From NCBI GenBank assembly GCA_964187785.1, contig OZ076409.1, positions 37,388,001 through 37,452,000 of the forward strand: 64,000 bases of DNA. Direction: 5' to 3'. The DNA comes from Amphiscolops sp. MND2022. Taxonomy: Eukaryota. This document shows, in pieces, positions 3,648 through 45,459 of this stretch. Position 1 is the stretch's first letter, and every line of letters begins with the position of its first letter. Below the pieces are notes generated by a model, which worked only from the letters and a program-made list of their open reading frames with translations, ran no database searches and was not told the DNA's origin. The translations under genes were made by a program, and so were the position numbers.

Positions 3648-5016
3648 AAAATATTCAAGTGAAGTGGATGGAGATGGTGGAGATTTGGTAGTATTTGGAA
3701 AAAAAAACGCAAAACAGATTATGATTTTCCTCCACCATTATATGTTGGCAGAAAATAATAAAGATAACTAGGAAGAATGACTAATCAAGATGCTGATCGT
3801 GGTGGCTGCTGTGATTTACAATTAATTTACAATTAAGTAAAGATAGAAACAATGATGGATATATATGGAACGCTTTCAATCTTACTTCAATGTTCTTAGT
3901 AAATTGCCAACTATTAGAAAAAGTCAATCATGCGCTGAAACCTTCTCTTTTTCTACTATCACAGTGGATATTGATCCAATTTCTTGCTTTTTTATCACTT
4001 CCGTGATCTACAACCTTTCGAAGAGAGAATGCAGCTTCCCAACAGGGCTATGCTCACTTTGATTCTGATCTACCTCACGATATTGGCGTATAGCTCAATT
4101 TTCTTGCAGCTGATCAAGTTAGCGAGTCGTTCCATTATTTTTGTCGCCAATAAGCCTAGGCTCCCCCCATGAGTTCAGGGACTTTCCCCAGAGCAGTTTG
4201 AAATGCATGATTTCGTATGTTGCTCTGCTACAAGATTTCACAGTGCTTGAAAATAGACAAGTTACTGCAATTTGTAACTTCAGAAATTTGACTGATTCCT
4301 TCGACTTCGAATTTTTCAAAAAAAATCGAAGATTTTTATCAAAAAAACTACTAGAATTTGATGATTCGCGAGCAATTCGAATCGAAATTCTTGTAAAAGC
4401 CCTTAGTAACTGTTTGTTTCAGTAATTCAGACTTTTTGAACGAATATCATGGCTTGAAAAAGTTTGAAATTTCAACCTATCAAAACAGCCGATTTTGATA
4501 TTCCGCTCTCAAAGTAGTTCCCTTGAAAAACAGTTCAAAACTTCATTACGACAATGTTTTTGATTTTCGAAACCCGAATATTTTTCAATAATGCGTTTTT
4601 CAACAGTTTGCGAGCAAAAAAAACCTCGGAAAAAAATTCCAGTAATACGAATTTGTTTGCTACACTGGCACTCTCTCACTATTTGTTTACGTCATATTGT
4701 AGCGTCTGTGCTTACAAAATTTAAAGCATTTCCCACAAAAACCTACAATATTTCGCGGGTATTTTGGGTTTAATTTCCTTGATGTTACTTTGAAAGCCCG
4801 CCAAATTGTAAAGGAATCCTAATAAATACCTGGAGAATTAGTGACGCAGCATGAAAATTTTAAGCATGAAATTTTCACCAAGCAGCATTAGAGTGCACAG
4901 GCAAGCCTTATTTGCTCAAAGCGCAACATAGTGCGTTCAATATCTCGGATTCCACAACCATAGCTTTAACCGTGCAAAATTTGCAAATTACGTCATTTGT
5001 CCCGGATTCCACGGAT

Positions 5017-5734
5017 TGTAACGTCCACCAGTCAACACCAAATTTTCGATGAAAAATTCGATCAAGAACCAAAAAATGTGCGAATCAAAATGGCCGACCT
5101 GGCAGGTCCTTAAAGCCCATAAAATGAAAGAAGAGAGCACGTGAACAAGAGGAACGATAGGAGATAATGAAGAGAAGAGGCAAAACAACTGATGACATGA
5201 AGATCCACACGGGACAGAATACGACGAACGCTACCCGGTGCTATGTCATCCCTGAGAAAGCAGAACCATGCTAGAATGGCGTGACTGGATCCCCGAAAAT
5301 CTACAAACAGTAACTGTGTTTTCACTTGGGGCTTATCCCCTTTTGTTTTGTTAATTTATTATAATGCATTTTGTTATTTTCCCCATGTCTGACCTTCTAG
5401 GTCGGCATTTCATGCCCATAACTGTCGAAATGACATTTTTCGAATAAACACTCTTTTGGACCTCGGAAGTATGTAGGAGATGGCAGGAATACACTAAAAA
5501 CCCTAGGATACGTTTTTACAGGCTTGTGGGGCGTGTCCGGACTTTGAGAGTGCCGGCACGTCGCCTCGGAGCTCTAACTAGAGGAGCCTCCTTAGACGTT
5601 AGAAAAGTCCCCCATGGAGACCATTTTGGGATCAAAAACTAGTGTCTAGGTATGTAGTAAGACAACGGTCTCCTGTTTAAGCATCCTAGGCATTGTCCCT
5701 CTTCCTAGATGTGCGCCGCTAGCCGGACGTTACA
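5017..5734 (+). repeat. E1 5' LTR (718 bp)
   Basis: TGTAACGTCC...GGACGTTACA (10-bp terminal inverted repeat); direct repeat of 23392-24110. Confidence 0.97.
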
Positions 5735-5750
5735 TCTGGAATAGTTTTTA

Positions 5751-5768
5751 TGGCGACCACAGAGGGAT
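5751..5768 (+). promoter_or_regulatory. E1 primer-binding site (tRNA 3' end complement, probably tRNA-Arg)
   Basis: TGGCGACCACAGAGGGAT is the complement of ...ATCCCTCTGTGGTCG-CCA and is identical in E2. The Arg assignment is inferred from resemblance to GACCAC-type Arg acceptor stems. Confidence 0.85.
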
Positions 5769-8720: not shown

Positions 8721-9170
8721 ATGGAACGACGCGAGACTAACACAACCATAAGCGACTTCCATGCCACCAACCCTTTCAGAAGAAGAACGGAAGCCACAAC
8801 CGAACAAAACGAATGTAGATTAGATTCAGCCATAGCAGCCGTATTTTCAGAAGCTATGTCTGACTTCGTACCGAGCCAGGAGCAAAACGCGGAGATAGCC
8901 GTTGCCACTAGCCAGCTTAACTCCTCGCGAGCCTCCCCCGATAGCACCAATCTACCGGATAATACTGAGAACACTACGCAAAGAAACACCTGGCCTCCGC
9001 TGGAAGTCACTGACTACAGCTTGGAAAATTGGCCTAACTCCAACCAAGGGCCCACCAGTGAGCCCAGCATCGTTGATACTCCCAACGAACAAAACGACAC
9101 TCCAATGACTCCACGGGCGGACCCACAGACGGCGGATGTCGAAAGGAACCCCCGGGTTCCCAGGAGATGA
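8721..9170 (+). CDS. E1 Gag N-terminal segment, out of frame with the main ORF
   Basis: FHATNPF, TWPPL and NWPNSN motifs match the in-frame N-terminus of E3 Gag. The stop overlaps the next ATG (ATGA at 9167-9170). Confidence 0.7.
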   Translation: MERRETNTTISDFHATNPFRRRTEATTEQNECRLDSAIAAVFSEAMSDFVPSQEQNAEIAVATSQLNSSRASPDSTNLPDNTENTTQRNTWPPLEVTDYSLENWPNSNQGPTSEPSIVDTPNEQNDTPMTPRADPQTADVERNPRVPRR

Positions 9171-12100
9171 TCAATAGCGTAGGCGGGAATCCCTTCCGAA
9201 GCGGATATGCGCTACCGGAAGCACCGGCGAAAACGTCGAACGGGCCAGTGGAGAACTCGAAGACAAACATAACAGAGAATCCGTTAAGATACGTTTTTCG
9301 AACGCCACCCTCGGTGAGACCAAAGATTAACTATGCGAATGCGAGTCGAACGTCTCATACGCCAGACTCTCAAGCTAGCGCCGACACCAATCTCGACTCA
9401 ACAATAACCAAAGCAAGGAAGGAAATGCAAACGGTTCGAGAAGACTTTCAGAGTAGTCTGGCTCAGCTAGCTCAAGTCCAGACGAGGCTGGCGAGGGAAA
9501 ACAATGAACATGAGATGCGCGCCGACATGATAATGAGAGACATGGATGAGCTGCGAAAAGGTCTGTTGGAAATGCAAGCGGAAGGGCGACAAAATCAAGG
9601 TCGACTGGAGGCGTCCATGGCATCTCTCAATGATCTGATTAAACAGAGAGGAACTACAGCAGACGCCCGCATGGCCGAGATGTCCGCAATAATGAGGGAA
9701 AGAGACCGCCAAGCAGACGAACGCATGAAAGCAATGACAAACACGATGCAGCGCCGCGACATAGACTCCAATATCCGCATGGCGGACTTAATGATGGCAA
9801 TGCAAGATTTAACATTGGGAGTGAAAGCAATTGTGTCACAAACCCCCGCGCAGCAAGCACAAACGGCGCCGCGGATTCCCCAAAAGTATCAACAAACCGA
9901 AATGCCATCTACAAGCGAAGCCCCCCAACCTCACTATAGGACGGTGGCACAGCACACCGTGGAGCCTCCTAGGCCTCCAAAACTAGTGCCACCCGCGACG
10001 TACAGGCGTGACCTGTCTAAAGCTAGCAAGATGGCTAAAGTAACCCACACGGAGTCACGAGACGCCGGTACGGACCCGATGACTGACCCGCCGTCGTTTG
10101 ACCAGTACGCTCGCGGGACATCAACCTCCGGCGACTTTCATACAGCCGCCGACGAAACGAACATCCGCAGGACCAGCTATTATACGGCCGATTCCAGCGC
10201 AGCATTCCGCCCACCTGCGCGAACGCATACGTTCAGAGACTTTGTTCCGCGGCCAGTGGCCACCAGTACGCAGCGTAAGGTGACAAACAAGCGGAATCTA
10301 GAACAAGGCAAAGGCGAACATAGCGACATTGAAGAAATGCCCTCAATGGCAGAAGAGACCCCAGACACACCGAGAACTACCCAACGACAAGCACTAGCGG
10401 AAGCAATATCTACGGCCATGTCTAAAGGCTTGGAGCCACTGCTCGCCGCCAAAGAATCTAAAAACAAGCCCACGAAATATAGAGGAACCCGCGACGGAAA
10501 CGCAGATGGATGGATGATGTTGATGAAACGCCATTTGGAAAAAGCACACCCGAAGGCGACCCCCCTCGATAAAGCATGGACAATAATTGAGTATCTAGAG
10601 CATGAAGCCAGAGATTACATCACGAATAAGTCCGAAGCCGAGAGGGACACGGACGAAAAAGTATTCGCATTGCTGGCGCGTCGCTTTGGGACAGGCTCCA
10701 GCAAGATCCACATCCAACAGCAATTTAGAACCCGCAACCAGAATAGCGAGGAGGACTACATGCAATACCTTGACGCCCTCGAAGGCTTGCGTAGTCAGGG
10801 TTACCCCAATGAAGAGGTGACAGTTCGTCGATACGAAATCATGCAAAGATTCATTGAGGGAGTACGCAACTTCGAACTAAAAAGGAACCTCGCGCTAATG
10901 TATGCACCGGAACAATACGTGGAGACCCCGCCAACAGTGGAAGCCCTCCGCTTCACGGTACAACAATACTTACGCATGCGTGGCTCCACTCGCTCGGACA
11001 ACTACCCAATGATGCCCCCTCCACAACAACAAGCCAACATCCAACAACCTAATCAATCTCCGGTAGCACCCGCGCCTGCCCAAAAAATGCAACAACAACA
11101 GCCTCCCCAACCAGCAGCATACCAACAACAACCCATGCCACCGGCAGCCTATCGACAACAACCCCAGAGGGCGTGCTTCAACTGCGGAGACCCATCGCAC
11201 TTCGTGGTGGACTGCCCCCTGAAAGACCGTGCACGGAAGCCGGTGCAACAGCAAGTGAACTCCTGTCACACGAACCCGACTGGTAGTTGGGTGTGCCCCT
11301 CCCAGCCACATGGCTTGAACTATGATGTTTTCCCAGCATCCCTGCCAACCCAAGGCACAGTTCCCTTCTGCATCAATTGCGGCCGTACTGAGCACTCGGC
11401 GTCAGAATGCATGGCCTCGGAGCAAATGAGTCACGAAGAACAAATCCGTGCAGCGTGGTATGCTCCTGCACCAAGTCAATTCGATGGCCAGAGCCAAGAC
11501 GACCAAGTCCGGGTAATATCGATAGCGGAAGATGGGGGTCCCTCCCGACCTGTAGTAGTCACTTGTGGCGAGAAACAAGTACTCACCACGCTGGAGGCGC
11601 CCGCCCCAGATTGCACAGAAACGCTTATCTCGATACACTTGCTTCTCTCGGCAGAACAAAAAACGCGACCCACGCTGACGCTATCGCAACTAAAAGAGGA
11701 ATTATGCAGAAACGTAAAATATACTATCGCAGCGCGACCGCTCCCACATTTCACGAGAGAAGACGAAACGAAGCTGGCCCCAATACAGAAAGTCAAAACC
11801 GTTTCTCCGGTGCCGGTAGCCATTAACGTAGACGGTGTAGATATGAAATTTGACGCTATCGTAGTCTTAGAAGGTCACTTCCCTCAGGGATTGTACTTGG
11901 GCCGCCAGGAGTTGCGATGTTATAACATCGGAGTGCAAGATGCCCAGGGGGAGGCTCGCATTGACGAACGAGCATCCCTGGTGGTTGCCTTTGGCAACAC
12001 GATCCAGGAACCAATACCCTTGTACGGGATGATTGACACCGGTTCCGGTGTCTCCATTCTCTCCCTCAAGGCCTATCAAAAGATTGCATCACCCCACGCC

Positions 12101-15100
12101 TTGAGCCTCCTACCATATGACATCCAACTGTATGCCGCCAATGGTAAAACCATCAACACCATCGGAATTGCCGAAAATGTTAGCTTCCAGTTGGGCGGAC
12201 ATACCCTTAGAACCAATTTCATAGTCATTGCCGATCACCTAGGTGCCGAGGACTTCTTACTTGGCAGGAACTTCTTGCGCACTTACAACGTTCTCGTGGA
12301 CCTGACGGCCATGAGGGTCACCATACGAGACCCCAAAGCGCCACGCCACTTCAAACCCGTCCATGAGGTAAGTGACCATGAGCCATCCCTAGTGATATCC
12401 ACCGAAAGAGTAGTCCTAGGCCCTTATGAGCGCAAACTGGTGCGAGCCCAAGTTATTTCTCAAAAGCACAACGAATACCTTTTCCGAAACGTAATGATTC
12501 GCCCCCAGGGGGTATATAAACGATCCCCCTTTGTCTCAGAAGATACATTGACGTCTGTTGGAGATGAAGGCATTGTCTTCATAGCCGTACGAAACACTAC
12601 CCCCTCTGAAAACGTAACCATTCAAACCAAAACTGTCCTCGGTAAGGCAGAAACTACAAACTTTGTGTTGCAACCTGTGGCTGCCGATACGGCAACCGAA
12701 ATTGATAAACCTTTGTTTGAACAAGTTAATAGAGTTTATACCGATGAGTGGTTAAACGAAACGAGTTCCGAATATAGTTCCTTTGCTCAAAATTTTTTGT
12801 CCTCTACTGAGATATCTGAAGAAGGATTGTCGGAAAGCGAGAGGCGTGCTCAGACTGACCCACAGTTACTGAAACCTATACCAGGTCCAGACCTCTCTTC
12901 TGTCCTTTCTTCATGGGGGGAGGGAGCGAGAGATCAACTAGCAAGCGTCCTGAGCGAGTACGATGATCTTTTTATGAAACATAAAGCTGACATAGGGAGA
13001 TGCAAAATAGCCAAACATCGTATAGAACTAGAGCCGGAAGCTATCCCGCATAGAGAAGGCGCTCGGCGCATGTCCCCAGATAAGGCAGCAAAGGCTAATC
13101 AAGAGGTGCGGAATTTGCTGGCCCTTGGCCTAATTCAACCCTCCTATTCACCGTGGGCAAGCGGAATAGTCATGGTCAAAAAGAAAACAGGCGAACTTCG
13201 CTTCTGCTGTGACTTCCGACCGCTCAACGACGTAACGGTCAAGGACGCGTTCCCATTGCCCAGGATTGATGAAAGTCTATCCCGGATAGGCAATGCGAAA
13301 ATTTTCACAAGTATTGACCTAGCGTGGGCCTTCTGGCAGATACCGCTAAAGAAGCGCGATAGAAGGAAAACAGCATTTGCCTGCGAACTGGGCTTGTTCG
13401 AATGGCGGCGCATGCCCTTTGGGCTATGCAATGCATCCGCCACATTTCAGCGCTCCATTACACGAGCCCTGCAACGGATCCATCAACGACACGGGAGTGT
13501 CGTCATGGCTTACATTGACGACATAGTCATCGCCACGGAAACCATAGAAGACCACATCGTACGAATCAAGGAAGTATTCGAGTGTCTCCGAGAGGCTGGA
13601 TTCAAAATGCGTGCCGAGAAATGTGATTTCATGCGCACGGAGACAAAGTACCTGGGGCGAGTGGTGTCCTCGGAAGGCATCAGACCAGACCCCGAAGCAA
13701 TAGTCAAAATCCAAGAATGGATGCCCCCGAGAAACAGAGAGGAGCTTCAGAGCTTCCTAGGGTTCGCAAACTATTACCGGGACTTTGTACCGTTTCATGC
13801 AGCCAAGGTGCAACCCCTGCAGGAGTTACTCAAGAAGAGTCAGCATTTCCACTGGGAAATAAAACACCAAGAGGCCTTCGATGCAGTAAAGGAGGCACTA
13901 GCGAATGCGACCGCCTTGGCAGCCCCAAATGAAGACGGACGGTTCGTGCTCGATACCGATGCTAGTGCGGTAGCGATAGCTGGAATCCTGCACCAGGAAC
14001 AAGAACACAATGGGAAAACTATTTTACGGCCAATAGTCTTCGGGAGCAAGTCCCTGACAAAAACGCAACTGAACTATGGAGCACCCAAGTTGGAAATGTA
14101 CGCAGTATTTTACTTCATAGAGAAATTCCATTCGTATCTCGCAGGCCGAGAGTTCACGCTCCGCGTGGACAACCAGGCCCTGTCGTGGCTCAAAACGTAC
14201 TCCATGGACCAAGCCATGATAGGTCGCTGGATAGCCCGTCTGGATCAATATAACTTCAAAACGATCCACCGACCTCGCACACAGCATCGAAACGTGGACG
14301 GCCTCAGCAAACGGACCAACGACTATGTGCACCGAGAGAAAATCCTTGAGAAGTTACCGGAAGTGAGTGAAGGATTCAACTTCATGACCAAAGAAGACTA
14401 TGAAGCACTTCCCACCGTGCCATACTTTGACAAACACGGACGCCCAATACCAAACCATCCAGAGCTCCCGCCGGAAGCTCGAGCCCAACTCCCACTGCTG
14501 TATATCTTGGGAAAAAGGCCCAAAACGAGCTTGCAAGAAACCCCAGTGAATGATGCCCCGTGGTACCCCCAAATACAGTGGGAAGCGACACCCACCACAG
14601 ATGAGGATCACCGACCGAGTCACATCCTCAGCATCACGACCGAAGTGCCACCTGCACGCCTAGACACTGGAGAACCTGATCCTGTGCTTGAAGGGATGCC
14701 ACCCGAATGCCGAAGGCAAGCCCACGCCCTTAGAACAGTCGGAACGGAGCTGCACGAACACTTTCTGACTAGACGTGGCCTCAAGGACCTGCACCTAGCA
14801 CAAAATAGGGACGTGCACCTCCTAGCGCTTAGGAAACTCATGAACGGCGAACCACTAGAAGACACAATGTTCCCCGAAGACGTGCAGGACTTCGCGCGAC
14901 GCTACTTCCATCAAAAGAAAGACCTGCTCTTCCTGAACCCAGACGACATCCTCTGCGTCAACTACGTTCCGCAACAACGTGCGCTGCACGTGCGACCGTG
15001 CATGATAGTCATGCCACAACTATACCAACACGAGATTCTGTATAGGGCACACGACGAATCGGGACATCAGGGCGTAGGGAAGGTGCTAGCAAGAGTACAA

Positions 15101-18100
15101 GAGCGACACACCTGGCCGGGCATCAAGCGTGACATAGTCAATCACATCAAGCACTGCTTAACCTGCCAGCAGACTAAACACCCCGCCGGGAACCCCTGCT
15201 ACCCCTTGCAGAACATTAACAGCAGCAATTTCAATGACCTAGTACAATTCGACCACCTCAAACTATGCAAGACCGAATCGGGAAACACCGGTCTCTTGGT
15301 AATGATAGACCACTTCACGAAATTCGCCGAAGCTGTCCCGTGTGCCCACGACGAATATGATGCTCAAACCACAGCAAAGATCATCCTTAATAAATGGTTC
15401 GCCAGGCACGGCACTCCAGCACGCATGCAGTCCGACAATGCCACGAATTTCACAGCTGAAATCGCACAAGAGCTAATGAAGGCTTCGCAAGTCACTAAAG
15501 TGACATCCACACCAGCGCATCCCCGAGGAAATGGACTCGTGGAAAGGCAGAACCGAACGTTACTCACACTGCTCAGAGTCTACACTTCGCGACGAATGCA
15601 GGATTGGGATGAGCACGTTGATGGAATCCTCGGTGCGTACAATTCAACTAGACACGCAACCACGGGATTCTCTCCCTATATGCTCCAACATGGAGCCGAA
15701 AAATCCATTCCCTTGTCGTTCATCTACCCAGAATTTGCTGCGCGAGGATTCGACTCCAAAGAGGAATTCGTAGAGCACCTTCTAGCCAGACAACAGGAAA
15801 TCCATGAACTCGTCAGAAGAAATACACACCAAGCACAGCTACGGCAAAAGCTGAAGTTTGACCGCCACCTGAAGGCCAAAGCGCACGCCGTAGGCGATGC
15901 GGTGTGGGTATTCTGCCATATCATACCCAAGGGTGGCACCCGCAAGCTGATTCGCGCATGGCGTGGACCCCACAAGGTGACTGACGTGTTGCAGGACGGA
16001 CGATTATATGTGCTAGACACTGGCCAAAAGGTCCATTACGAAAGATTAAAAAAGCACGTGCCTGCCCCTTGGGACTGGGCCGCACACCAGCCCTTTGGGC
16101 CGGATCAAAACGTAGCCATCATTGCCGATCCGTACGTAGAAGAAAGCAATGAGGAGATAGCGTCCGACATCTCTCAAGACTCTTTTCTACCGGAACAACT
16201 TCCGGAAGCATCGTTCGAAATGGAACCAACAGGATCGATTCCACCTCGTACCATTCAGACTCGTACCCAAACGGCACTCGAGCAAGGAATACCCCGAAGA
16301 AGATTCAGTCACTTCGGATACCCCTCTGACTCAGATTCCGAAAGAGAAGAAAATGAGCCGCCGATCCAGAGCCCACCACCGCCAGTAGTGTTCCCCGACT
16401 TGGACGACCTAGAACCACTGTACTCCGACCAGGAGGAAATTCAGCCAGCCGTACCTACAAGTCTGATACCATCACCCTCAGGGACCTCGGCCCCACTACT
16501 ATCCAATCCGTCCCTGACGGATACCCTGAGTAACTTTCCCTTGTTTGGCCCCCAATTGGAGGACCCAATCGACCCGATAGAAATTAAACCAAAGTCAGGA
16601 ACTGAAGACGAAGAAGAGATAACCTATCACAGTCCAAGCCATTGCTCAACACAACCCGATACCACGAATCGCAGAGGACGGCCTCGAGGCCGACCACCAG
16701 GTCGAGGACGACCCCGCGCCATACCATCCAGTAGAACCACGACATCGTCGCGAACCCAAACCGCACGATCCAGAAGAGGCCCTAGGACAAGAATGAGCAC
16801 TCGTGCACCCCCTCGAAGGCTAGACCAAGCAATGACTCTGCCAGAAATACCCGAAAGCCAACAACCACCGGAGGTCCAGAATTCAGAACCGAGACCATCA
16901 TCGCAAACATCACGATATCAACTGCGAGCTAATAGAGCACCACGATACAAGTGTGGAACCTGTGGTTCCCGCAACTGTAGTTGCGTCAAGCATCTGACTC
17001 GCGATTCACCGGACAACCGATTGGCCCGGGGAGCGGTAGTCCCTGCCAGGGATCTCCTGATAGCCAGGACACATTGTCACCCACAACATGAGATCTTAAC
17101 CGTACAAGCCCAGCGAGAAAAAGTGGAGACACCCCCGCTAGTACACCATTTGATCATCACGGTAGAAAAAACTTTCACTAGTGTGGAACGGGAAGTGATA
17201 CCACCGCTCGAAGAAACACAAATAGCAATGCACGCGACATCTCCCTCCGACTGCCCAACTTACCGATTCAAGGAATGGACACCACCCCATCGAGGCGGTC
17301 TAGAATTCACCCTACATGCCATCATACCGCCCTTGCCACCCTCGATGACGTTCGGCGAGCTAGCGAAAGAGGATAGTAGCACGGAGATGATTCGCTGTAT
17401 CACTGCACACCAACTGTGGGAGAAATATCGCATTGCCTCCCCGCCGGGAGACATATACCAGCCCACCAATGGATGGTGGCTACTCGTCACCTCTCTAGAC
17501 GCAACGACATTGGTATCCCCCACAACTCTATTAATGTGCTTAGAAAGCTTGCGTACTGTAACAGAACCCGAGAACACGCTCTGTTTCCACATGGCCGACA
17601 TTTATCGTGGCAAGTTCCTAAGCCAACATTGGCTACAATTAATAGCGGTCATCTTCTGCCGACAGGCGAAGATACACTTCTTGGATCGACAATCTTATAC
17701 ACCGGAAAAACCCGTCACAGTTAGCGAAGCACTCTCGATAGTACACGATTGGTCATCTACCAACATGGGAGATAGACCGCTACGCCGAACCGTCTGGGAA
17801 GACCGAAAAGCAATCTTGCAGCATTTAGCACCCCAACCCACTGATGATCAGAGCAATACCACCGGCAAATGGCTCATAACCCAGCCCAAAACCAGACCGA
17901 ATTACCTACCTTGGATAACTTATGACAATACAGATATCCTGCAGGCACCTGGCACTCTGATACTATGCTGCCCTGCGGATTTGCTCTCTTACTCTGCCAC
18001 GATCCGTTACGTTATTCGCGAATACGGTCAAGAAAACATATTTCGCCTAAGACCGTCAGTTGGCACCGCAATTCGCTTAGTCCGCTCGCCAACTGCACCC

Positions 18101-26371: not shown

Positions 26372-26389
26372 TGGCGACCACAGAGGGAT
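26372..26389 (+). promoter_or_regulatory. E2 primer-binding site
   Basis: TGGCGACCACAGAGGGAT, identical to the E1 PBS and also 16 nt from the LTR end. Confidence 0.85.
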
Positions 26390-31700: not shown

Positions 31701-34700
31701 AACCACAAACGAGAATTGCCGACAATTGACTCTGCCCCAACCGGAAGAGTGGCAAGTGAAAGGTGTCACTTCGACGTATCATGCCTATTCTCCGATTCCA
31801 GTCAAAGTCTGCATAGATGGTGTTGACATGCGTTTTGGTGCCACTATTATTACTGACGCGTTTCCTCCTGGAATCTGCTTGGGACCGCAGGAGCTGCGCT
31901 GCTATAACATTGATGCTCAAGAACCAACTGGTGAAGCGAGAATCGATGAGCGTGCGTCGCTCGTAGTTTCATTCGTGGTTCCCGATGCTGCTCCCGTGCC
32001 ATTACGTGGTCTAATAGACACTGGATCAGGAGTGTCCATCCTCACCTTCTCAGCCTACAATCGAGTCGCCGTGCGCACTGGGACACTCTTACGACCTTAT
32101 GGTATTGACTTATATGCCGCGAATGGGAAGACGATCAAAACTTTTGGTCTAGCGGAGAAAGTCAAATTCCAATTGGGAGGCTACGAATTGGAAACTAACT
32201 TCGTGGTAGTCGATGACGCTATGGGAGTGGAAGATTTCCTCCTGGGAAGAAACTTCCTAAGAGCCTATCAAGTCTTGGTAGATTTAACCGCAATGAAGGT
32301 CATTGTCCGAGCTCCCTCTGAACCAGTGTGGTACCATGCCCACACACAAGTAAGTAACGAATCACTCAATTCGTCGGTAGCGATTGCACAGGACGTAGTG
32401 TTGCAACCCTTTGAACGCGCGATACTACGCGCTAGATTGCTTGTAGACAACTTAGAACCTTTCATGTTTCGAACCGTGCTAATCAATTTTCAAACACCTA
32501 ACCGAATGTTAAAAAACGCCATCTTTTTAGAGGACACCGTGGCGACCGTGGGGGAAACTGGCTTCCTTTACGTCAGTTTAGGAAATCTTACCAGCAACGT
32601 ACAGCGGATCAAAAAGGGCACCCTTTTAGGAACCGCGGTACCCGTGACGATGGTTCATAAAGCCATCCCCCAAATTGTCCCCGGACAATCAAACGAAACT
32701 CTGCAATTAAATGCAAATTATGTTTATAAAGTTTATGAACAGATGAACCTTGATTCTTCTTCTGAATATAGTTCTTCATCTGAATTTGAGTTTTTGTCCT
32801 CTACCGAACCGTCAGAACTAGGCTTGTCCGAGCGCGAAGTAAAAAAACGAACCGATCCGGCGCTAATGGCTCCGATACCGGGCCCGGAAGCACAACTCGA
32901 CGAGGTGCGCGGTTTGTGGGGATCGACCGCCAGCGACACGCTTAGTAAACTTTTGAACGAATTTGATGATTTGTTTATGAAATTCAAAGCCGACATTGGC
33001 AAGTGTAAAATCGCTAAGCACCCGGTGGAAGTAGAGCCAGGGGCTGTACCCCACCGCGAAGGTGCAAGACGAATGTCGCCTGACAAGGCAGAGCGTGCTA
33101 ACCAAGAAGTCCGTGACTTGCTAGCTTTGGGAATGATACAACCTTCCCTATCCCCTTGGGCGAGTGGAATTGTTATGGTCAAAAAGAAGAGTGGTGAATT
33201 GCGATTCTGTTGTGACTTTCGACCACTTAATGAAGTGACCATCAAAGACGCTTATCCCTTGCCACGTATCGATGAGAGTCTATCCCGATTGGGCAAAGCC
33301 AAAATCTATACTAGTATTGACTTGGCGTGGGCGTTCTGGCAAATTCCTGTCCGAAAAGCCGATCGTCAAAAGACTGCCTTCGCTTGTGAACTTGGGTTAT
33401 TTGAGTGGCGGCGTATGCCTTTTGGTATGTGTAACGCATCAGCAACATTTCAACGGGCAATAGCGCGAGCGCTACAAAGAATAGTGAACCGTGAAGGAAG
33501 CATGGTTATGGCCTATATCGATGACATTGTGATTGCTACCGAGACCATCGAGGATCACATGGATAGACTACGCGAAGTATTCCAATGCCTGCGTGAGGCC
33601 GGGTTCAAAATGAGAGTCTCCAAGTGTGACTTCATGAAATCGGAGATCAAATATTTGGGCCGGGTCGTATCCGCAGATGGTATCAAGCCAGATCCAAAAG
33701 CTGTCACCAAGCTGAAAGAATGGGATATCCCGCGAACCAAGACTGAATTGCAAAGTTTCTTGGGTTTTGCCAACTACTATCGGGATTTTATCCCGTGGCA
33801 TGCAAAACTAGTTGCCCCTTTACACGCGATAACAGGCGTAGGCTCTTCATTTTTGTGGGGGGAGGAGCAGCAGCGAGCCTTTAACAGCATCAAAGTGGCA
33901 CTAATGGAAGCCACGGCTCTGGCGCAACCCGACACTGAAGGCGAATTTGTTCTCGACACAGATGCTAGTGGTGTAGCTATATCAGGTATTCTGCACCAAT
34001 GGCAAGGACCACCTGAGAGTCGCAAACTGCGACCGATTGTATTCGGAAGCAAAAAGTTAACCGCTACGCAAGCAAAGTATGGAGCCCCAAAATTGGAAAT
34101 GTATGCTGCATACTATTTCATCTTGAAAAACCACAGTTATCTCTGTCCACGAAAATTCACACTGAGGGTAGATAATCAGGCCCTATCCTGGCTAAAAACA
34201 TATTCGATGGATCAGGCGATTATCGGTCGATGGATTATGGCTCTTGAAAAATATCACTTCAGTATTGAGCACCGACCCAGAACGCAACATCGAAATGCTG
34301 ACGGTCTTAGCAAACGAACAAATGATTACAAAAAACACGAAAAGCAACTAAAGGGTTTACCCGCAATTGCAGACAAATGGGACTTCCTATCACAGGAGGA
34401 ATACAACAAACTCCCGCTAGCCCCATGGTTCGATGTCCACGGACGTGTGATACCAAATCACCCAGAATTGCCTGCACACTTGCAGAGGTTGGCTAGCCAA
34501 AGTTCACCCGAGACCACAGTTGCCGCTCCCACGCGAAGGAGCGGACAAAGCAAACGAAGTGCGATCATGCGCGACGAAGCCATGAGAGCGCCCCTGCCTA
34601 CATTGCCAAAACCAGAATTGACATGCCTGCCGAACTTTATCCAGAGTATCCTGAGGATTGGTTGGAACTGACCGAGGAATATCAACGAGACTATTTGCTC

Positions 34701-37700
34701 CCCACGCATGCTGCTAACGTACCATCAAGAACCACTTATCCACTGACGGAAAAGCAAGCAACCAGCACTGCACCAGAGCACGTAAAACAAGCCGCGTTTG
34801 TGGTAAACAGCATATCGATGGAATTACATGAACATGCTAACACAATCCATGGGTTGAAAGATCTACTACTAGCACAAAACCGTGACGTCCATATATTGGC
34901 TATCAAGAAATTGGTAATGCAAGAATCAATAGATCATGACATCTTTCCGGAAAATGTACGTGCCTTTGCCAAAAACTACCACAAACAGAAGAAGAACCTT
35001 CTACTAATAAACGCCAACGGGATTTTGTGTGTAAAGTATTCCAAAAGTCAAAGAGCTTTGCATGAACGCCCCTGCATGATAGTAATGCCACAATTGTATC
35101 AGCATGAAATACTATTCAAGGCCCACGACGCGATGGGACATCAGGGCATCGCGAAAGTCTTGGCCAGAATTCAAGAGCGCCACACTTGGCCAGGCATCCG
35201 CCGCACCATGGGACAATACGTCAGCCAATGCATCACTTGTCAACAAGTACGTGACAAGCCTGGTGATGTACGCTTTCACTTGAAAAATATCCAAAGCGGC
35301 TATTTCAACGAGCTAGTCCAATATGACCACATGAAAATTTGTCCCTCTGATGATGGTAACACAGGGATCTTGGTTATTATCGATCATTTCTCTAAGCTCG
35401 CAGAAGCTGTGCCGTGCAACCACGATGAGTATGATGCAGCGACCACTTCAAAGTTGTTGTTGCAGAAATGGTTTGCCCGCCATGGAACGCCGACGAGGAT
35501 GCAGTCAGACAATGCTCCCAACTTCACCGCGGCAGTGTCTGCTGAGTTTATGAAAGCCGCCCAAGTGACCAAAGTAACCTCAACTGCTGGCCACCCCAGG
35601 ACTCAAGGGTTGGTAGAGCGACAAAACCGAACGTTACTCACCCTACTGCGTGTATTCTGCTCTAGACGAATGCGTGATTGGGACCAGTACTTAGATGAAG
35701 TCATGGGTGCATACAACTCCACACGTCATGCCACTACTGGGTTCTCCCCGTATATGCTGACTAGAGGCATGGAAAAAGCTATACCCCTGACTTTCTTGTA
35801 TCCCGAATTTGCAACTCAGTCATTCGAATCACACGAAGCCTATGTGGAACATGTGCTGGCTCGACAACAAGAGATTCATGACTTAGTCCGTCGTAACACG
35901 CATCAAGCCCAGCAGCGACAAAAGTTGAAGTACGACAGAGCAATTCGTGCTAAAGCCTATGAAGTGGGCGAACCTGTTTGGGTATTCTGCCGATACATTC
36001 CTCAAAATGGATCTCCTAAATTAATGAGAGCGTGGCGTGGTCCTCACAAAGTAGCACGAGTACTACAAGAGGGACGCGTCTACATACTTGACACTGGTCA
36101 GAAAGTACATTTCGAACGATTGAAACCGCACCATGGTGGTCCAACAGAATGGGCAGCTGTTCCTGCGCATAACGGCGAGGTTGCTATTATCATGGACCCT
36201 GATCCAGAACAATCCCACGAGGAGGTGAGAGACGATGCTTCGCAACCTTCTTATCGTGCAGAGGAACCAATTTCAGAAGCCAGTAATGCCTCTTTGCCTT
36301 CTCGACAAAGACATTGGATGGACACACGGTTACGCACACACATGCGCGCAGGTGGCAGCCGCCTACATTATCAACAATTTGGCTATTCTTCGACTGAGTC
36401 TGACGATGAACGTTCTGATGTACTCCTGTCGAGTGTTCAGGCTAGTCCTGATGAGAGTGCTATCTTGTCATCACATGTAGATGAACCTGCGCCTATTCCC
36501 GAAATGCCAATATCACCACTGCCTGATATGGAGGCTCTATTCTCAGAGAATGAAGCAGTACCCGACGTATTGGACATCGCCCCGAATCCTACTATCCACG
36601 CACCCACCGAAAGTGCCGGCACCTCTCTGACCGGTACATCCGCCCCATTATTGACAAATCCATCTCTTACGGATATGTTGAGTAACTTTCCCATTTGGCC
36701 CCTAATCGATGACAGTGTTCTCAACCCAACCTTAGACGACAACGGTGCTGAAACACCAACGACCAATGACGAAAAGGGATCTATTCCCCCTGCGACAGTT
36801 CCCACCAACAACAACGCAGCTACTACCACGAAACTCTCCAATGCTCCTAGAGGGCATGGACCGCGGGGACGTCCGCCAGGCAGAGCGAGGCCGCGAGCCT
36901 CGCTGCCACGTGGCCACCAACAGAGAGGTGCTATTAGAGGCGCTCGCAAAAGAGGCCGTCCCAGAGGAAGACCTCCTCGTACAACACACGCCAGACCTAA
37001 CATCTCTACCCGTGTTCGTAGCACTCCATCTATGGACACTGACTCTTCTGCCCCTAGCGCAGCGGTTACCTCAGATCAAGCAGCACCATCAAAATCAACC
37101 AACGCTCGCTATGGACTGCGACGCAATCGTATTCCCAGATATCGTTGCGGGACATGTGGCCTACGAGACTGCGGATGCAACTACATGGTCCACGCGGGCT
37201 TCCCAATTAAACCCCGGGGAGTCCTGCTAGCACGTGAACAGGAGAAACCGCTTCCAAGCGGCACCGTTGACCGTTTGGTTATTCGAGCCGAGAAGACTTA
37301 TACTGGGCTACAACGCAGCGACACTCCATATCCTGTGGACTATATCCTATCCAAAATGAAAGATTCTACGATAGCAAAGGCCCCGTGCCCAAGGTTCAAG
37401 GAGTGGACCTATGATCTTATTGGTTTGGAATTCACATTACCTATCACTGTTCCCCCCTTGCCTACAAATATTGCTTTTGGTCCTTTCAACTATGAACGAG
37501 AGCCTATCCAAAGGGTACGCTGTATTCCTGCTGACCTTTTGTATGACAAGTACAACGTCACCGCAAAACCAGGAGACGTTTATCAGCCTGCAACCAACTG
37601 GTGGCTACTAATTACGGCCAAACAAGTATCCGACCTGGTTCATCCCACTAACTTGAACACCTGTCTGGAGAGTTTGCGGACGATGACCTCTCCTGATAGA

Positions 37701-38501
37701 ATCACTTGTTTCCACACCATAGACCTATATCGTGGTAAAATTAAGTTTGAATGGTGGCTGGAACTTATTATAGCAGTCTTATCGAACTTTTCACGAATCA
37801 GATTCCTGGACGAATGGACACACTCTTTTCCTAGTCCTGTATCACTCCAATCAGCCCTGCACGCACTGGATACATGGTCCAGGGCTAACATTGATAATCA
37901 ATCGTTGCCGCGATCTGTGTGGCAAGACTTGGGCGCCATTAAAGGCCTCCTCCCGAACGCATGTAACGATGCTCTCTCCAAAGACCCCGGACGAGAATTA
38001 GTATACCATGGAGCCGTGAGACCTCAATTGGTTGACTATGTGCGGTATGCCAATACGGACTTCCTGCAGACTCCCCATCACATTGTTTTATGTTGTCCCG
38101 CAAACCTAGAAACTAATTCTGCCGCTCTTCGTTACGTCATTCGTGAGCATGGTGCAGATGCAATCTTTCAACTTCGACCGGAGGTTGGCAATATTGTAAC
38201 GCTACCCACATCTTTGATAGACGGCCATCCTCAGACTATCCACCTTTTAATCACACGAGCTACACCTCGCTGCCCTATGCTCGCTGATATTCTCTTTGGA
38301 TGTCTTGATCATTTGAAAACGTTACTCGAGCGCCTAGAGGCGATAGAAGTACACTTTGCCATCATTGATCCTGAGCGCCCAATACGTAATCTTTTCGATT
38401 TTTATACCTGTTTGATGGACGTATTCGCTGACACCCCCCTGACCGTCGTTCTTCACGATCGCGTTTACGTATCTATTGCAAGCGTCGCTAGCTTTCCGTA
38501 G
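28736..38501 (+). pseudogene. gag-pol: E2 gag-pol, disrupted (stop at 30296-30298, frameshifts near 30434 and ~34620)
   Basis: ORFs 28583-30298, 30538-34671 and 34623-38501 together are collinear with E1 Gag-Pol (2x CCHC, LIDTGSG, YIDD, DTDAS, HHCC/DDE, GRP repeats, CGTCG, C-terminal LHDRVYVSIASV). Confidence 0.9.
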
Positions 38502-38724
38502 AACTTTTGTTTTTCCCTTTTTTTTGTCGTTTTGTTTTTTGTCCGCTCGATTAAGTTTAGTGAATCGACACGGAGTTTATTTGAAACTAATACGTTACCT
38601 TTTTCTTCAATGTTAATGTGTGATATTCTATTACTTTCCCTGGTATTACCCTCAAAATGACCTATGGTGTTGCCCTACTATCAAGTGTGCTACAATCGAC
38701 CTGCACTCTTTCAGAATTGCCGTC

Positions 38725-41700
38725 ATGAACCAAGATAACGATGGAAGCAACAACGTCCCTCCAAGGTCTTCAGATGACTCTCCTGCCTTGGGGCAACGCG
38801 TTTACGACACTGCGCGTGTCCAGCGTACCCCACAAATTGCTTTTATTCGAGACAGACTCGACCAAGGTCTGTCGCCAGCTACAGTTGCCGGGGTGGCGGC
38901 AATCATAGCCCAGATGGAGTCGCAAATGCAAGCCCCTATGCTGACGATATCTATTACTTCGGGCTTTCCTTGGTTCCAACGATCCATGACATACCAAGAT
39001 GGAGTGTGGCACGGCCATGATCTTACACATCACTTTACGGATGATCGTGCAGCGATCTCATACAGTCCTGCGAATGGCGGAGTCCATCAGACCAGATCTC
39101 TACAGATCCCTTCTTGCCCGCCTCCACCTCCACCGCCACCTCCTGCATCAACACCACAAACAGTAGTGCGTGCGCGCACTCCTGCTCCTATGGTACCTAA
39201 CTTGCCCAATCAATCAATGACGGAGCAAGCAGTTATCTCAGCACTGCAAGCAGTAGCTATCAACCCCAATTACGCTGATTTCATGCGATCCATGGAGCAG
39301 TGTTGGCCTGAACTGCGCCGAATTGCTCTGCCCACTGTCACTATTCGCAACGAAAATGTCACTTCGACCCAAACAAGTCAAGATGCCATCACTATTCCTC
39401 ACGTCAATCCTCTGTCTGATCAGCCAGGACACTCCCGCACCGTGACTGCAGAGCGCAGTCGTTCGCCTTCCCGCTCTTCTCAAAAGGGGGGAGGAGAGAG
39501 CCGCCCTGCCTCCAGAAAACGCAACGACCCTTCCCCAACAAAAAAGAGTGCTCAACAACCACTAACTGCCCGTGACAGCCCCTCGAGCAAGCCACCGCCC
39601 GACAAAAAGATCTCCAACGAGAAGGCCACAACCAAAACGCCAAACCAAACAAAATCAAAAGTGTCGGAAGCATCCGTGCTTCCCTCACCCCAATCACAAC
39701 CAGACGCAACAGGCGAACAACAAGGACTGCCGCAGCCACCATCCACGCAGTCTACAACACGCGAGTCGCTGGCTCAACGAGCGACTCCTAAGCCTTCCAC
39801 ATCAAGACAGCCACAAACGGAGCAAACTGTGGGTTATCAAGGCACCCCTGAATCTCAGCGAACTGTCAAGGACATAATGGGTGATTACCCAGGATTGAAG
39901 GTAACCAACAGTGGTCCAACTGGAACACCACTCCGCAAACAGGCAATTCAACACCCAACTAAGAGGACCTTTACGAAACAACCGACGTACCTGAGTCCAA
40001 TGCAAAACTCAAAGGGCACACTGATCACCAAGGACTCCCGACGTATCTGGGAATCGGCAGTTATAGTATCGCCCGAATGGCTGTTTGAAAAGAACATGTG
40101 TCCTCCGAATGACGAAGAGCATGCGAAATTGAAGAAGGCGAATGTACCTGTATTCATAAATCGTCCAATCCGCCCCGACCACACCCCTACCAATGAGCCG
40201 CCATGGCTAGGGAAGGCAATGAATATGCTGCCAAACGTAGAAGACAATTACTTGGACGCCCTCAACATTGACCTTCGTGGGCAATTCGCTGACCGATATT
40301 TCCTCAATGCTGGAGAGACATTCGAGGTCAACCCACGGTACGCCCGTGACCTCGAAGCCCAACTACCAATGCCGAAAGAAAGGTTGCAGCGTGCGCGCTT
40401 CGCCTTACTTATAGATTCGACATTCCTCAAAAATATCCCCATTGACAATGTGCTGTCAGACGTGATGGTTTTCACTCTACCGCTGTCACGTATTCCCGAG
40501 ATGGCCGAAGTGTTGGTCACCATGTTTGACCCTGAGATGACGGGGACCTTCAAAGAGCCACCCCCACGCAGAGTGATCATCAGTAACGTTTTCGATCACA
40601 TGGCCTGTGAGGGACTAATGGCCCAGATCGCGAACGTTGAAATCATAAATCCAAGTCCAGCACAGCGAACAACAGTACGCAACGCAGCACTGAACATGGC
40701 CCGAGCCATGGAAAAAGCCCAAAATATCTTAAAGGATAAACTCAACGTGCCAGCCCTGTTTGTGACACCCCCAGGTTTCTGCCAGTGGCCTCCCGTCTTG
40801 CAGAGATTTATCTACATGGTAACAGAAATTTGCAAATGTAGACATTGCGATCTGCGCGCCCAATATGCGGATCAGCTCCAACGACTTTCGTCCCTCCTGG
40901 CTTTCCTACATGGGGTATGTTGCCTCGGTGTCTAAAGTGCTACAGTCAGTGGAAAAGACAGGGAACGCGCAGCTGACAATCGATGATGCCATCTATTTTG
41001 ATCACGGCACTCGTATGGGCTTGTTAGTATTCAACAACAACGGAGAAAGGCGAGTTCCAGAACCTAGTACGGCTGAATGTGAGGCAATTCGCCTGAATAA
41101 CTGGATAGAGCGCGCGCGCTCCTCCGGTGGAAAGACTTGCATTAAAACTGATCTTGCGGAAGTCACTGCCATAATGAGCAAAGTCCCCAGCGACCGAGAA
41201 GTAGAACGAGCCATCCCGCGAGTTCAATTTGCCCAGGACCTCACAATTGACCAATTATCAGTGGGAATGAAGTACATTGCTGCAAAATTGACGAGCGAGA
41301 CTCAGGCTGAAATCCAAGCCTTCAGCAGCACCTACGACGCCTGGTACCAGCGGCTACAAACTACCACCGTAGCAGACATTGCAAAAGAACTTGGGATGTC
41401 AACCGACCAATTTGCCATCTGTTTGGGATTGGGTTGGAGTCCCGATGTTATTCGAGTTGAGTTCGACTTAGACGAGCACTGGTTGATCGAAATCAGCAAG
41501 ATTATCGGTACCATGCAAGTAAACGAACTCTTTGCACTGATGCTCACTTTCGGGCAGAAACGCTTCGTAGCTGGCCCAATGATGATATTGACCGACCTGG
41601 TTACCGAGTGTAATCTGGAATGGCTATTTTCATATTTAGTGATTGCGCGAGGGAATATCTCAGGCCTCACCGCTTTAGCCAAGCTGCTACAACGAAAAGA

Positions 41701-43084
41701 CGCTCAGGATTATCCCGCTCACCTGGAGCGCATGACAACTTCGTTATATCACTGGATATACTGCAGTCTGGTCTTTGCCTCGGGACTTTTCGTGGGCGTA
41801 GATAAGCACCAACCATTATATGACGGACGTCAGCTGGTGACCGAGGTAGCTGGATTTCTGACACCTAACCAGCTGGCAGATTTCACTTTGGCTGAAGTCG
41901 AAGACCTTGTACCGGTGTTAGTAACCGTGCTAACTCCGATATTTGGCCCAACCGGGATACTTCGCTATCCCACCAAGCCTCTGCGACTGGCCTCGGAGAC
42001 ACTAACAGTATCCATCCTGACTTTTCTGAAGAATGTAAAACCGCACAACTATCAGCAGATGCTTGAACGTGGGCTGTTTCTGCTAGTACCCCGCATGTAT
42101 ACCACCATAAAGAATGAAACGCAGCAAGACGAAAACCTGGCCGGTATTCTCAAAGCCCGGACAAAGAAGGCGTGCCCTTTACCTCGCGAATACGGCCCGG
42201 TGAATTGGTACAATTCGCCCTTAGATCACCTTGGAATCCCACAGCGATTCAATTGGAGTTTCGCACACCTCAGGAAGTACGTGACCGAATGCGTGCAAAC
42301 CATGGGCGGTCACACAAATCAGGAGTATAATTTTCAGATGATCAAGCTTCCAGCCAGGTACTGGCGAGGACCCATCGGTTATATCCGGGCTAAGCCAATC
42401 AGCATGGTCGAGAAGGGCTTTGATGAGCAGTACGCCTATCGCGATCACTACAAACTAGGCGTGTGGATGTCAAGGACCCTGGAGGAACGCCAAGGGCGCC
42501 TAAAAGGCTTGATCATCCCCCCACTGACAATGCCTGTTTGGAATCCAGAGGCGAGGGTCACTATGGGAAGCGACATGCCAGCGGAGACCTGCTACCACGT
42601 CATGGAACTGCTGAGTGATCCCCTCGGACCCGAATGGGAAGCCTCCAGGCAAATTATAGAACATGCAAACAGGGACAACTGGTCCAGAGCCTGCGGGCTC
42701 TGGGGCCGACCTGATCTACGCCCGAAACTCAGTGCCAAGCAGAAACGACCCATTGCCACCCGCAATAGACCGCTAGATCTACCACACCTGTTTAATGCCA
42801 GTAGATTGGATGTGCAGATCCCAATCTCCACGTCGACCACAAGTTCTGCCAATGTTAGCGGCTCAGCCAATGCAGCGCAAGAACATTCGCCAGAAGCCTC
42901 AACTCCCGTAGCCGCAGAAGATGGCCCTAGTGGCTCAAACACGACTCCCAGGACCCATGAAACTGCCAGCGCCGAACCAAAGCCAGTCCTGCGAGAAGGA
43001 AATATGCGAAGAGGATCCCTGTCCGAACTACAACCGAAAGCCGACGTCTCCCCCAGAGCGCGTCACTTCTCCGCCACCCAGTAA
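38725..43084 (+). pseudogene. E2 ORF2 homologue with a frameshift near 40840-40865
   Basis: ORFs 38620-40935 and 40865-43084 give FALLIDST, VIISNVFDHM, LFVTPPG and ICAPNMRISSNDFRP, collinear with E1 ORF2. Confidence 0.85.
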
Positions 43085-44060
43085 AACAAACCTAACATTG
43101 TTGCCATTCTATTTCTAACTTCAATAGTCCTATGCTAAATGAACCTTTGCGAAACCTCATGGTTTCAATCTCTGTTGTTGCTAAACTTCGATTTTGGAAG
43201 TGCCAATTGGTCATGGGTAAAAATCTCCAAGTGGAGATGAAGCCCCCGGGCTTCATCCTCCTTATTATTCCGTTTTGGGATCGGCAACCCAACCATGAAA
43301 CTGCGCCTTTGCCTTGCCTTAGTTAGATGCAATATTCAATTTGCAATTTGTGTTTGCAGTTAGTGCTTTTTCAAGCTACCTTATGCTACCATATGGATGC
43401 GCTGTGCGCACTCCGTGCTCTGAATTTTCGGTGCTATTACACCCTTTTAGTTACTAGTTATTGTTTACACTGTTGCTATTGTCGAAAAAGACAAAAAGAA
43501 AAAGATGAAGGAAAAGGAAACAGAAGGAGAGAGATGAGAAATGGATAGAATAAAAAGATTGATGGACCTCGACCATTGTTTTTTCTTTGAGTTACCTGAT
43601 AGGATCGAGAGTAAGTCTCGCAAAAGAAATTTTAAATTGACCGTACTTATTGGTTGATTTTATGGCAACTGCTTATCAAAAGAACTTTTATCAAACGCCA
43701 AGCAGTGCGAAGCTCCCGAGCTTCGGAAAATAAGTTTTGAACAGTCATGTGATGGTCGTTGACCTTAAAACAAGTTTTAACACTAACGGCAAAAAAAATT
43801 TTTATATGGAAGGCCGAAAAGAAATTTTAACGCCTGAATTGCTCACGACAGGCTACAAAAAGTAACAACCTTGCCGTATAAGATTTGTATACAAAGTTGT
43901 ATTGATTTGATCAAAATGTAGCAACGCTGGGTCAAAAACACTTCCACGAGGCCAACTTGACGACGTCCCAATGAACTGCCCAGCGCTACTTGATGTGCAC
44001 TCTACCTCCTCAGTGGGACATAGATGACTCTGGGTAAAGACTCGATGATGCCAACCCACA

Positions 44061-44098
44061 CTTGACGGGGACGTCAAGACTAGACCCCGGGGAGTGTA
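44061..44098 (+). promoter_or_regulatory. E2 pre-LTR hairpin and short purine tract
   Basis: CTTGACG-GGGA-CGTCAAG perfect stem-loop, then CCCCGGGGAGTGTA before the TG. Confidence 0.7.
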
Positions 44099-44831
44099 TG
44101 TAGCGATTACCTATCGAGTACACGATTTCGAAAATTTCGATGAAAATTTCGTTCAAGGGACTATATCCCCTCTGCTGAAAAGTCATATTCCGCTGGACGG
44201 TAGCGTGTCTTTATTCAAATACCTGCCCATAGAATTGAAGAGAATTTGAGCAGAGACTCGAGAGAGACCCCAACCGAACGAGAAGACTGCAGAAAAACAC
44301 GGCCGCTGTCAGAAAAAGACTCAAATTTCTGTCAAAACGGACTGAACTTTATTCTAGCCAGTGCTTTCTTCAGCGAAGCGTTACAAGACGCTGTGATTAC
44401 CGAAAATGAGTCAATTAGCTTGACCAAGCATCCGTGCTTGTGTCCCCGGCTAATTGCTGCCTCAAAAGTGCTAATTATGTAGTAATTTTCGTATTTTCTT
44501 GTTGTAACAGCTCGTGAGCTACTCATTTCGATCTCCTGTGTAATTTCGAAAAAACTTGATTTTTCCTTTCCACCACTTGCATTTTTTAAAGGCTGTCTAA
44601 GTGTTGGTTTCGAAGAAAAAGCGTAATGCGCACTACTGATAGCAATTACAGACTGGATCAGGCCGGCGAGCACTTCTTAAGAAGCGGAATCCTCCTCTGA
44701 CGGGACATTTCTTACCCGAAGGAGGCAAAATGGACTCATGGCCATGGGCGCCTGTCCCGGGCAAATACCCATGCCATGTGTTCCTCCTGCTCTTATGGTT
44801 ACGGCGACAATGGTGAGAGCTTGTCGTTACA
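44099..44831 (+). repeat. E2 3' LTR (733 bp)
   Basis: No difference from the 5' LTR seen by eye; the short ORF translations in both LTRs are identical. Confidence 0.97.
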
Positions 44832-45459
44832 GTGAATCATTCATGCTAAATATTTCCCTGATGCAATGCTATTTCTTCAAGTATTTATTAGGATTTCTAT
44901 ACAATTTGGCGGGTTTTCGGAGCAACATCAAGGAAGTTCAAGAAAAATTTCCCGCAAAATTTTCCATGTTTTTGCGGGCAAACCCTTATGTTTTATGAGT
45001 GTTGTGACGCTAACCTATGATGTAGACAAATTTCTACGTGTGCCAGTGTGGCAAACAAATTCGTATAACTGGACATTTTTTCGTTGGAAATTTTTTTTGC
45101 ATGAATAATGTTGGAATGGGCAATTTTCATCACTTTTCGTGTTTTCCACAATAGAGTTTTACACGGCCTTTTTGGGGAACTACTTTAGAACGGAATATTA
45201 AAATGAGGCTGTTTTGATTGGTTGATATTTGAAACTTTTTTCAAACTTTTTCAGCTCCGAAAATATTCATAAAACCTGACAAACTAACCGAAAGTATTAT
45301 AAGACGTTTTTGCAAGCATTTCTCGTGATTTTTTTCACATGAGTCGAACAATTTGGTGTTTTTCGGGCAAAAAAATCAACAAATATTTCGGAAATGAAAA
45401 ATTCTAATCCCAAAATTTCGGTCATTGTACTTGATTTCTGACTTTACCGGGCACGACTT

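Follow-up and report, generated by a model that had tools for sequence, protein, structure and literature searches.

Giant Gypsy-type LTR retroelements with 3-bp target-site duplications in an Amphiscolops contig

The window analysed here is the whole stretch of 64,000 nucleotides (64 kb) from Amphiscolops sp. MND2022 (contig OZ076409.1, positions 37,388,001 to 37,452,000). It contains three giant long terminal repeat (LTR) retroelements, E1, E2, and E3, all of which have TG..CA ends. The two complete elements, E1 and E2, are each bounded by a direct repeat of 3 base pairs (bp). We consider it quite probable that these elements represent a clade of Gypsy type, separate from the Troyka LTR elements, in which the integrase produces 3-bp duplications as a rule.

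Elements and their boundaries

E1 extends from 5017 to 24110 (19,094 bp), with LTRs of 718 and 719 bp that differ by a single indel. E2 extends from 25623 to 44831 (19,209 bp), and its two LTRs of 733 bp do not differ. The interior between the LTRs is approximately 17.7 kb in both. E3 lies on the minus strand, extends from 46998, and exits the window at 64000. The features that define the ends are as follows.

5017..5734, plus strand: E1 5' LTR, TG..CA, with an 8-bp terminal inverted repeat
5751..5767, plus strand: E1 primer-binding-site-like motif, starting with TGG, 16 nucleotides (nt) past the LTR, the same in E2
23380..23391, plus strand: E1 purine-rich tract, adjoining the 3' LTR
23392..24110, plus strand: E1 3' LTR, one indel relative to the 5' LTR
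25623..26355, plus strand: E2 5' LTR, TG..CA
26372..26388, plus strand: E2 primer-binding-site-like motif, 16 nt past the LTR
44099..44831, plus strand: E2 3' LTR, same sequence as the E2 5' LTR
46998..47722, minus strand: E3 3' LTR, related to the E1 LTR

The TG and CA termini are intact at all five visible LTR copies (two in E1, two in E2, and one in E3). With LTR pairs that are 99.9-100% identical, E1 and E2 are recent insertions. In both elements, the base just beyond the LTR differs between the 5' and the 3' LTR, so that the element ends are set independently of the flanking repeat.

The 16-nt spacer between the LTR and the primer motif (spacer plus motif at 5735-5767 and 26356-26388) would leave a long extension on one complementary DNA (cDNA) end for removal by the integrase. 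In a relative, L010 (1027-1055), the primer-like motif lies 7 nt past the LTR. The priming transfer RNA (tRNA) may be one for arginine. No tRNA or Rfam RNA was found in the 64-kb window.

Three-base-pair flanking repeats

The repeats at the junctions, together with the triplet at the near end of E3, are listed below.

5014..5016, plus strand: E1 left repeat GAT
24111..24113, plus strand: E1 right repeat GAT
25620..25622, plus strand: E2 left repeat GTG
44832..44834, plus strand: E2 right repeat GTG
46995..46997, plus strand: CAA flank of the E3 near end, predicted to be repeated at the far end outside the window

At E1, the junctions read cgGAT followed by TGTA (5017) and TACA (24110) followed by GATtt. 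Among flank lengths of 1-10 bp, 3 bp is the sole exact match, and there are two mismatches at 4 bp and four at 5 bp. At E2, the junctions read tgGTG followed by TGTA (25623) and TACA (44831) followed by GTGaa. Here, lengths of 1-8 bp were compared, and the flanks match exactly at 3 bp and, trivially, at a single G, with three mismatches at 4 bp and four at 5 bp. The original prediction, which held that both elements carry a 3-bp duplication and that CAA stands at 46995-46997, is borne out on all of these points.

The chance of a 3-mer match in the host DNA of this region is 0.022, which gives 4.7e-4 for both elements. The chance that both share any one length of 3-6 bp is 5.1e-4, and it rises to 6.3e-3 when 2-mers are allowed. 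Since the LTR pairs are nearly identical, decay of a repeat that was once longer is implausible.

The junctions also bear on a different explanation, in which the integrase makes a usual cut of 4-5 bases and end processing or gap repair then removes 1-2 of them, perhaps in connection with a long extension of one cDNA end arising from the 16 nt that separate the LTR from the primer site. This spacer is present in both E1 and E2, and if one side were trimmed, the outcome would look no different from that of a 3-bp stagger. E1 also permits a longer reading, as its right flank is GATT and a 4-bp repeat is possible if the first T of E1 is counted as host DNA. When the ends of E1 were shifted by up to 6 bases on each side, one 4-bp fit and one further 3-bp fit appeared, both of which eat into the invariant TG. 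However, the reassignment of T that produces 4 bp at E1 fails at E2 (GTGT versus GTGA), the TG and CA ends are intact at every visible LTR copy, and an identical and exact trimming would be required twice. We regard such trimming as very improbable.

Host sequence around the insertions

Both insertions lie in older repeated sequence, the parts of which are listed here.

4457..4882, plus strand: sister host repeat, first half, 71% identical to the E2 right flank in inverted orientation, ending in TTCACCAAG
4886..4909, plus strand: left arm of an inverted-repeat-bounded element of approximately 0.8 kb that hosts E1
24758..24781, minus strand: right arm of the same element of approximately 0.8 kb, like the left arm at 21/24 positions
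24787..24855, plus strand: sister host repeat, second half, 81% identical to the E2 left flank in inverted orientation

The flanks of E2 are two consecutive halves of a single host repeat: the right flank (44832-45240) aligns with 4457-4878 at 71% identity and the left flank (25541-25609) with 24787-24855 at 81% identity, both inverted. E1 is inserted within the inverted-repeat element of approximately 0.8 kb, and that element in turn splits the sister host repeat, which resumes at 24787.

The sister copy allows the E2 site to be compared with a related sequence that lacks E2. According to the original prediction, removal of E2 plus exactly 3 bp restores a match with an uninterrupted sister repeat near 4874. 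TTCACCAAG is located at 4874-4882, and a drop of 3 bases is the best among nine offsets, matching at 4/4 and 7/10 bases. The runner-up offset matches at 2/4 and 5/10, as does a drop of zero bases. The sister of the E2 site thus holds one copy of the triplet, but it is not uninterrupted as had been supposed, and it is informative across only 4-10 bases. Insertion of E2 without any duplication into a pre-existing tandem triplet was also considered and is disfavoured by the sister (2/4 versus 4/4).

Chance repeats are a further explanation. Each element would then be a recombinant of two insertions, or a product of an assembly join, and its two flanks would come from separate sites. In maize, 3-bp cases are ascribed to recombination or mutation (bioRxiv 10.1101/137141), and our window came from a very large scan. 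Yet a single host repeat supplies both flanks of E2 as consecutive halves, and the arms on either side of E1 are those of one and the same inverted-repeat element. Because both insertions lie inside continuous older sequence, an origin by recombination or misjoining is disfavoured. The joint probability of the matches is approximately 5e-4, even before it is required that both elements have lost a longer repeat. This explanation is barely credible.

Two further observations concern the element of approximately 0.8 kb (4886-5016 and 24111-24781). It carries nine GGAWTCCAC motifs over 4947-24737, none of which is within E1-E3. The point at which it splits its host repeat is also only a few bases away from the one at which E2 splits another copy.

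Coding content and family relations

The coding regions of the two complete elements are listed below; the lengths of the frames are given in amino acids (aa).

9077..18388, plus strand: E1 gag-pol frame, 3103 aa from stop to stop, with two CX2CX4HX4C knuckles, protease, reverse transcriptase (RT), RNase H, integrase, and a long C-terminal extension
14954..16156, plus strand: E1 integrase, with HHCC, DDE core, and WRGPH (GPY/F-type) module
18603..22805, plus strand: E1 second open reading frame (ORF2), 1400 aa, no Pfam match
28571..43084, plus strand: gag-pol and second ORF of E2, distributed across five open frames

Pfam searches on the frames place gag, protease, RT, RNase H, and then integrase in Gypsy order in E1, E2, and E3. 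In the E1 polyprotein, RT (1367-1527) is followed by a single RNase H (1593-1725) without a tether domain. A six-frame scan of the window gave six CX2CX4HX4C knuckles, two per element, and no match to the CX2CX8-10HX4C pattern.

In RT-RNase H, the identity is 94% between E1 and E3 and 74% between E1 and E2. The integrases of E1 and E2 are 67% identical, and the best match shared by the LTRs of these two is 27 bp. Judged by these identities, E1 and E2 belong to different families. Since two families show the same length, the 3-bp duplication probably characterises the clade as such.

This comparison bears on the explanation that the stagger is loose, ranging over 3-5 bp, and that E1 and E2 merely happen to sit at its short end. 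Mixed lengths are known: 5 and 6 bp are given for Rous sarcoma virus/avian sarcoma-leukosis virus (RSV/ASLV) (PMC9410886), and 4 bp was recorded at one insertion of Troyka (PMC12440569). Furthermore, two insertions are too few to define a length distribution. However, 3 bp was found at both insertions, in families whose integrases are only 67% identical, and in plants the duplication length is described as characteristic of most lineages (PMC6317226). A loose stagger is improbable in our judgement, if less so than trimming.

The E3 copy of the second ORF is 46% identical to that of E1, and the E2 copy is in pieces with approximately 31% identity. Relatives of E1 ORF2 numbered 10 among 5368 candidates. 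As a candidate for the envelope-like ORF that follows pol in env-bearing Metaviridae, it has no Pfam match and one weak hydrophobic stretch. Its structure model is unusable (predicted local distance difference test, pLDDT, of 32), and searches of PDB and Atlas gave no assignment. By eye, ORF2 looked SGNH-like, a candidate that received no support from Pfam, Atlas (best score 0.89, guide value 0.9), PDB, or fold comparison. The last approximately 200 aa of the E1 polyprotein (17774-18385) look macro-domain-like by eye, with a weak hint from Atlas (score 0.83, PF01661 in 14% of one cluster); a PDB search with this region gave no support for a macro domain.

Likeness to known elements

E1-E3 resemble Ty3/Gypsy (Metaviridae) elements in their TG..CA LTRs, primer site, purine tract, and gag-PR-RT-RH-IN order (PR, protease; RH, RNase H; IN, integrase), as well as in the CX2CX4HX4C knuckles and the HHCC-DDE integrase with a GPY/F-type module. 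They differ from typical members in having 3-bp instead of 4-6-bp duplications at both complete elements. E1 and E2 are also unusual in their size of 19 kb and in a primer site that is 16 nt off the LTR, and the second ORF, 1400 aa long in E1, cannot be placed in any known family. In the integrase core, the E1 clade has Ala for Gly and an insert of two residues.

The original prediction took 4-6 bp to be the usual range for LTR retroelements. It is true that 3 bp is rare, but a precedent had been overlooked: Troyka LTR elements have 3-bp duplications, whereas other LTR retrotransposons have 4-6 bp (PMC12440569). Troyka elements end in CG..CG (CGCCA..TGGCG) and have LTRs of 100-400 bp, an internal part of 1.6-7.7 kb, a CX2CX8-10HX4C knuckle, and no GPF/Y motif (PMC12440569; see also PMC11673190). 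One may ask whether E1-E3 are aberrant giant Troyka elements (Kuafuortervirus) that inherited the 3-bp stagger. The 3-bp duplications, the same order of pol domains, and the occurrence of Troyka in aquatic animals (PMC12440569) agree with this idea. However, E1 and E2 end in TGTA..TACA and not in CG..CG, and the CX2CX4HX4C knuckles and the GPY/F-type module are present in E1-E3. In addition, the LTRs of 718-733 bp and the interior of E1 and E2 are both beyond the Troyka range. A Troyka identity has next to no probability on these grounds, and E1 and E2 likely mark a second 3-bp LTR lineage besides Troyka.

Among the open-access papers listed by searches for such duplications and for giant elements, no 3-bp Gypsy lineage appeared, and Troyka was the sole LTR lineage with 3 bp; an earlier notice may exist in Repbase Reports or in subscription journals. 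In maize, 3 bp was recorded at 108 of 43,226 intact elements, the cases mentioned above (bioRxiv 10.1101/137141). A plant survey gives 5 bp for 93.4%, 4 bp for 6.2%, and 6 bp for 0.4% (PMC6317226). The maize and plant-survey pipelines may themselves exclude 3 bp.

Burro of planarians and Ogre of plants are giant Gypsy elements (PMC6431247). They resemble E1 and E2 in very large size, long polyproteins, extra ORFs, and high copy number. The BIR, BCL2-like, ankyrin, MATH, and env-like domains of Burro were absent from the 15 frames searched with Pfam (E <=0.01), a result that leaves room for remote homology. Among DDE transposons, the IS3 family and Zator are reported to leave 3-bp duplications (PMC10045372). 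These are a geometric precedent only, being DNA transposons without LTRs or RT.

Integrase features

The best solved relative of the E1 integrase is that of Ty3 (PDB 7q5b), with an E value of 6.8e-30 by sequence and rank 1 by fold. The E1 model itself has a mean pLDDT of 69 and a predicted template modelling score (pTM) of 0.54. The DDE core is intact in E1. The GPY/F-type module reads WRGPH in E1-E3 and WRGPF in 5/6 relatives scanned.

Two changes set the E1 integrase apart. Ala replaces the usual Gly two residues past the second catalytic Asp, and the beta3-alpha1 loop has an insert of two residues. For comparison, 203 proteins and 92 DNA stretches were taken, of which 121 spanned both sites. 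Both changes occur in all 46 integrase cores that are >=60% identical to E1 (E1-E3 counted). Among the 75 cores below 60% identity, none has Ala (71 have Gly and 4 another residue), and the insert is absent in 73. Of the two exceptions, P0029 looks like a frame-leaving member of the clade and L039 is likely a matter of gap placement. Among the sister clades without either change are the P0034, P0062, and P0032 families and the family of L006-L014.

In an alignment to the foamy-virus integrase, the E1 Ala stands opposite the Gly of the SDQGAAF motif. The residue after it would be the equivalent of Ala188, and the insert would lie near Gly96 and Thr99 of the mouse mammary tumour virus (MMTV) integrase. 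Ala188 is named as a minor-groove contact of integrase, and Gly96 and Thr99 are listed as backbone contacts in MMTV (PMC9410886). The clade-wide Ala and insert, at putative target-DNA contacts, may be tied to the 3-bp stagger, and we offer this as a lead only.

Relatives and search for further copies

Protein relatives of E1 are numerous: 3230 of the 8000 scored reached E <=1e-50, and nearly all of the 120 matches listed came from ENA assemblies. Four clusters of the E1 clade at 90% identity (P0008, P0013, P0015, and P0023) hold 178 to 895 protein sequences each. Successive protein scans gave 0, then 1, 3, and 80 loci. Patterns of the LTR or the primer site had no match in viral, prokaryote, or metagenome contigs. 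The purine-tract pattern occurred in six viral contigs and was dismissed as chance, none of the six having any match to the E1 protein.

A related family (L006, L007, L009-L014, and L018), with approximately 52% RT identity and a large two-part build, was found in other assemblies. A similar purine tract precedes TG in this family, and 7 nt past the LTR-like end there is a TGG motif. Its loci end short of the outer flanks. As separate observations, its gag and pol frames overlap, three zinc knuckles are present, and its second ORF of <=1900 aa does not match E1 ORF2. Three bacterial genome bins (L002, L003, and L004) carry Gypsy-type pol contigs of 37-54% identity, which are probably misbinned eukaryotic DNA.

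Origin and significance of the 3-bp duplications

Integrases of retroviral type attach the two CA-3' ends to opposite strands of the target at points 4-6 bp from each other, and the bases in between are copied during repair (PMC9410886); the length of the duplication has been attributed to the bending of the target and the spacing of the active sites (PMC10045372). In the E1 clade, the two points at which the integrase attaches the LTR ends would be three bases apart, and host gap repair would copy the intervening three bases, so that GAT or GTG is duplicated. The change from Gly to Ala beside a putative minor-groove residue, together with the two-residue insert in the loop, would affect the bending or holding of the target. 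The original prediction had proposed an unusually narrow strand-transfer stagger. Its basis, a genuine 3-bp target-site duplication, is supported; as for the stagger itself, the flanks and ends of E1 and E2 suggest it as the simplest cause. The length would then arise at strand transfer, would be what all of the E1/E2/E3 clade regularly produces, and would have an origin separate from that in Troyka.

Several points weigh against a clade with a regular 3-bp stagger. Besides the GATT flank of E1, only two insertions are at hand, both in one window that was selected in the course of a very large scan, and the far end of E3 is missing beyond base 64000. Among 90 loci, none of the 50 of at least 3 kb yielded a further two-LTR copy with flanks. 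The sister of the E2 site is a paralog of 71-81% identity rather than a true empty allele, and it is interrupted in its turn a few bases further along. The tree comprises 63 sequences, with no named Gypsy or Troyka reference among them. With respect to the integrase, the E1 model contains no DNA, Ala and the insert each represent a single inherited event, and the mapping of contacts rests on alignment. Finally, a stagger of 3 bp and a wider one that was trimmed in repair cannot be told apart by sequence alone.

A narrower version of the preferred clade reading specifies its history. Here, 3 bp would have a second, independent origin within true Ty3/Gypsy, the stagger of a high-copy clade of 19-kb elements having narrowed from 4-5 bp via Ala and the insert while sister clades in assemblies of the same kind kept the usual length. 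We hold this version to be possible but unlikely.

A survey in 2025 treats 3 bp and CG..CG ends as a mark for classification (PMC12440569). If the clade reading is true, the pairing is broken by a Gypsy clade that combines TG..CA ends with 3 bp, and stagger width can shift among ordinary Gypsy integrases. Under the narrower version, the E1 clade and its sister clades, which part at two putative target-contact sites, would form a natural matched pair for asking what sets integrase stagger width. Published LTRharvest settings include a mintsd of 4 and a maxtsd of 6 (10.1101/137141). With a minimum of 4, intact copies with 3 bp would presumably go unnoticed or be given wrong boundaries.

Other features of the window

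The gag-pol of E3 is interrupted by a non-coding insert of 1.2 kb (about 59600-60900), with a flanking direct repeat of approximately 6 bp by eye. It has no TG..CA ends and no second copy in the window. This insert was considered as a third case of duplication and set aside, as it is not a solo LTR of the E1 clade. In the host DNA at 45460-45587, 2200-2275, and 2769-2840, there are a short pair of direct repeats and two palindromic stretches.

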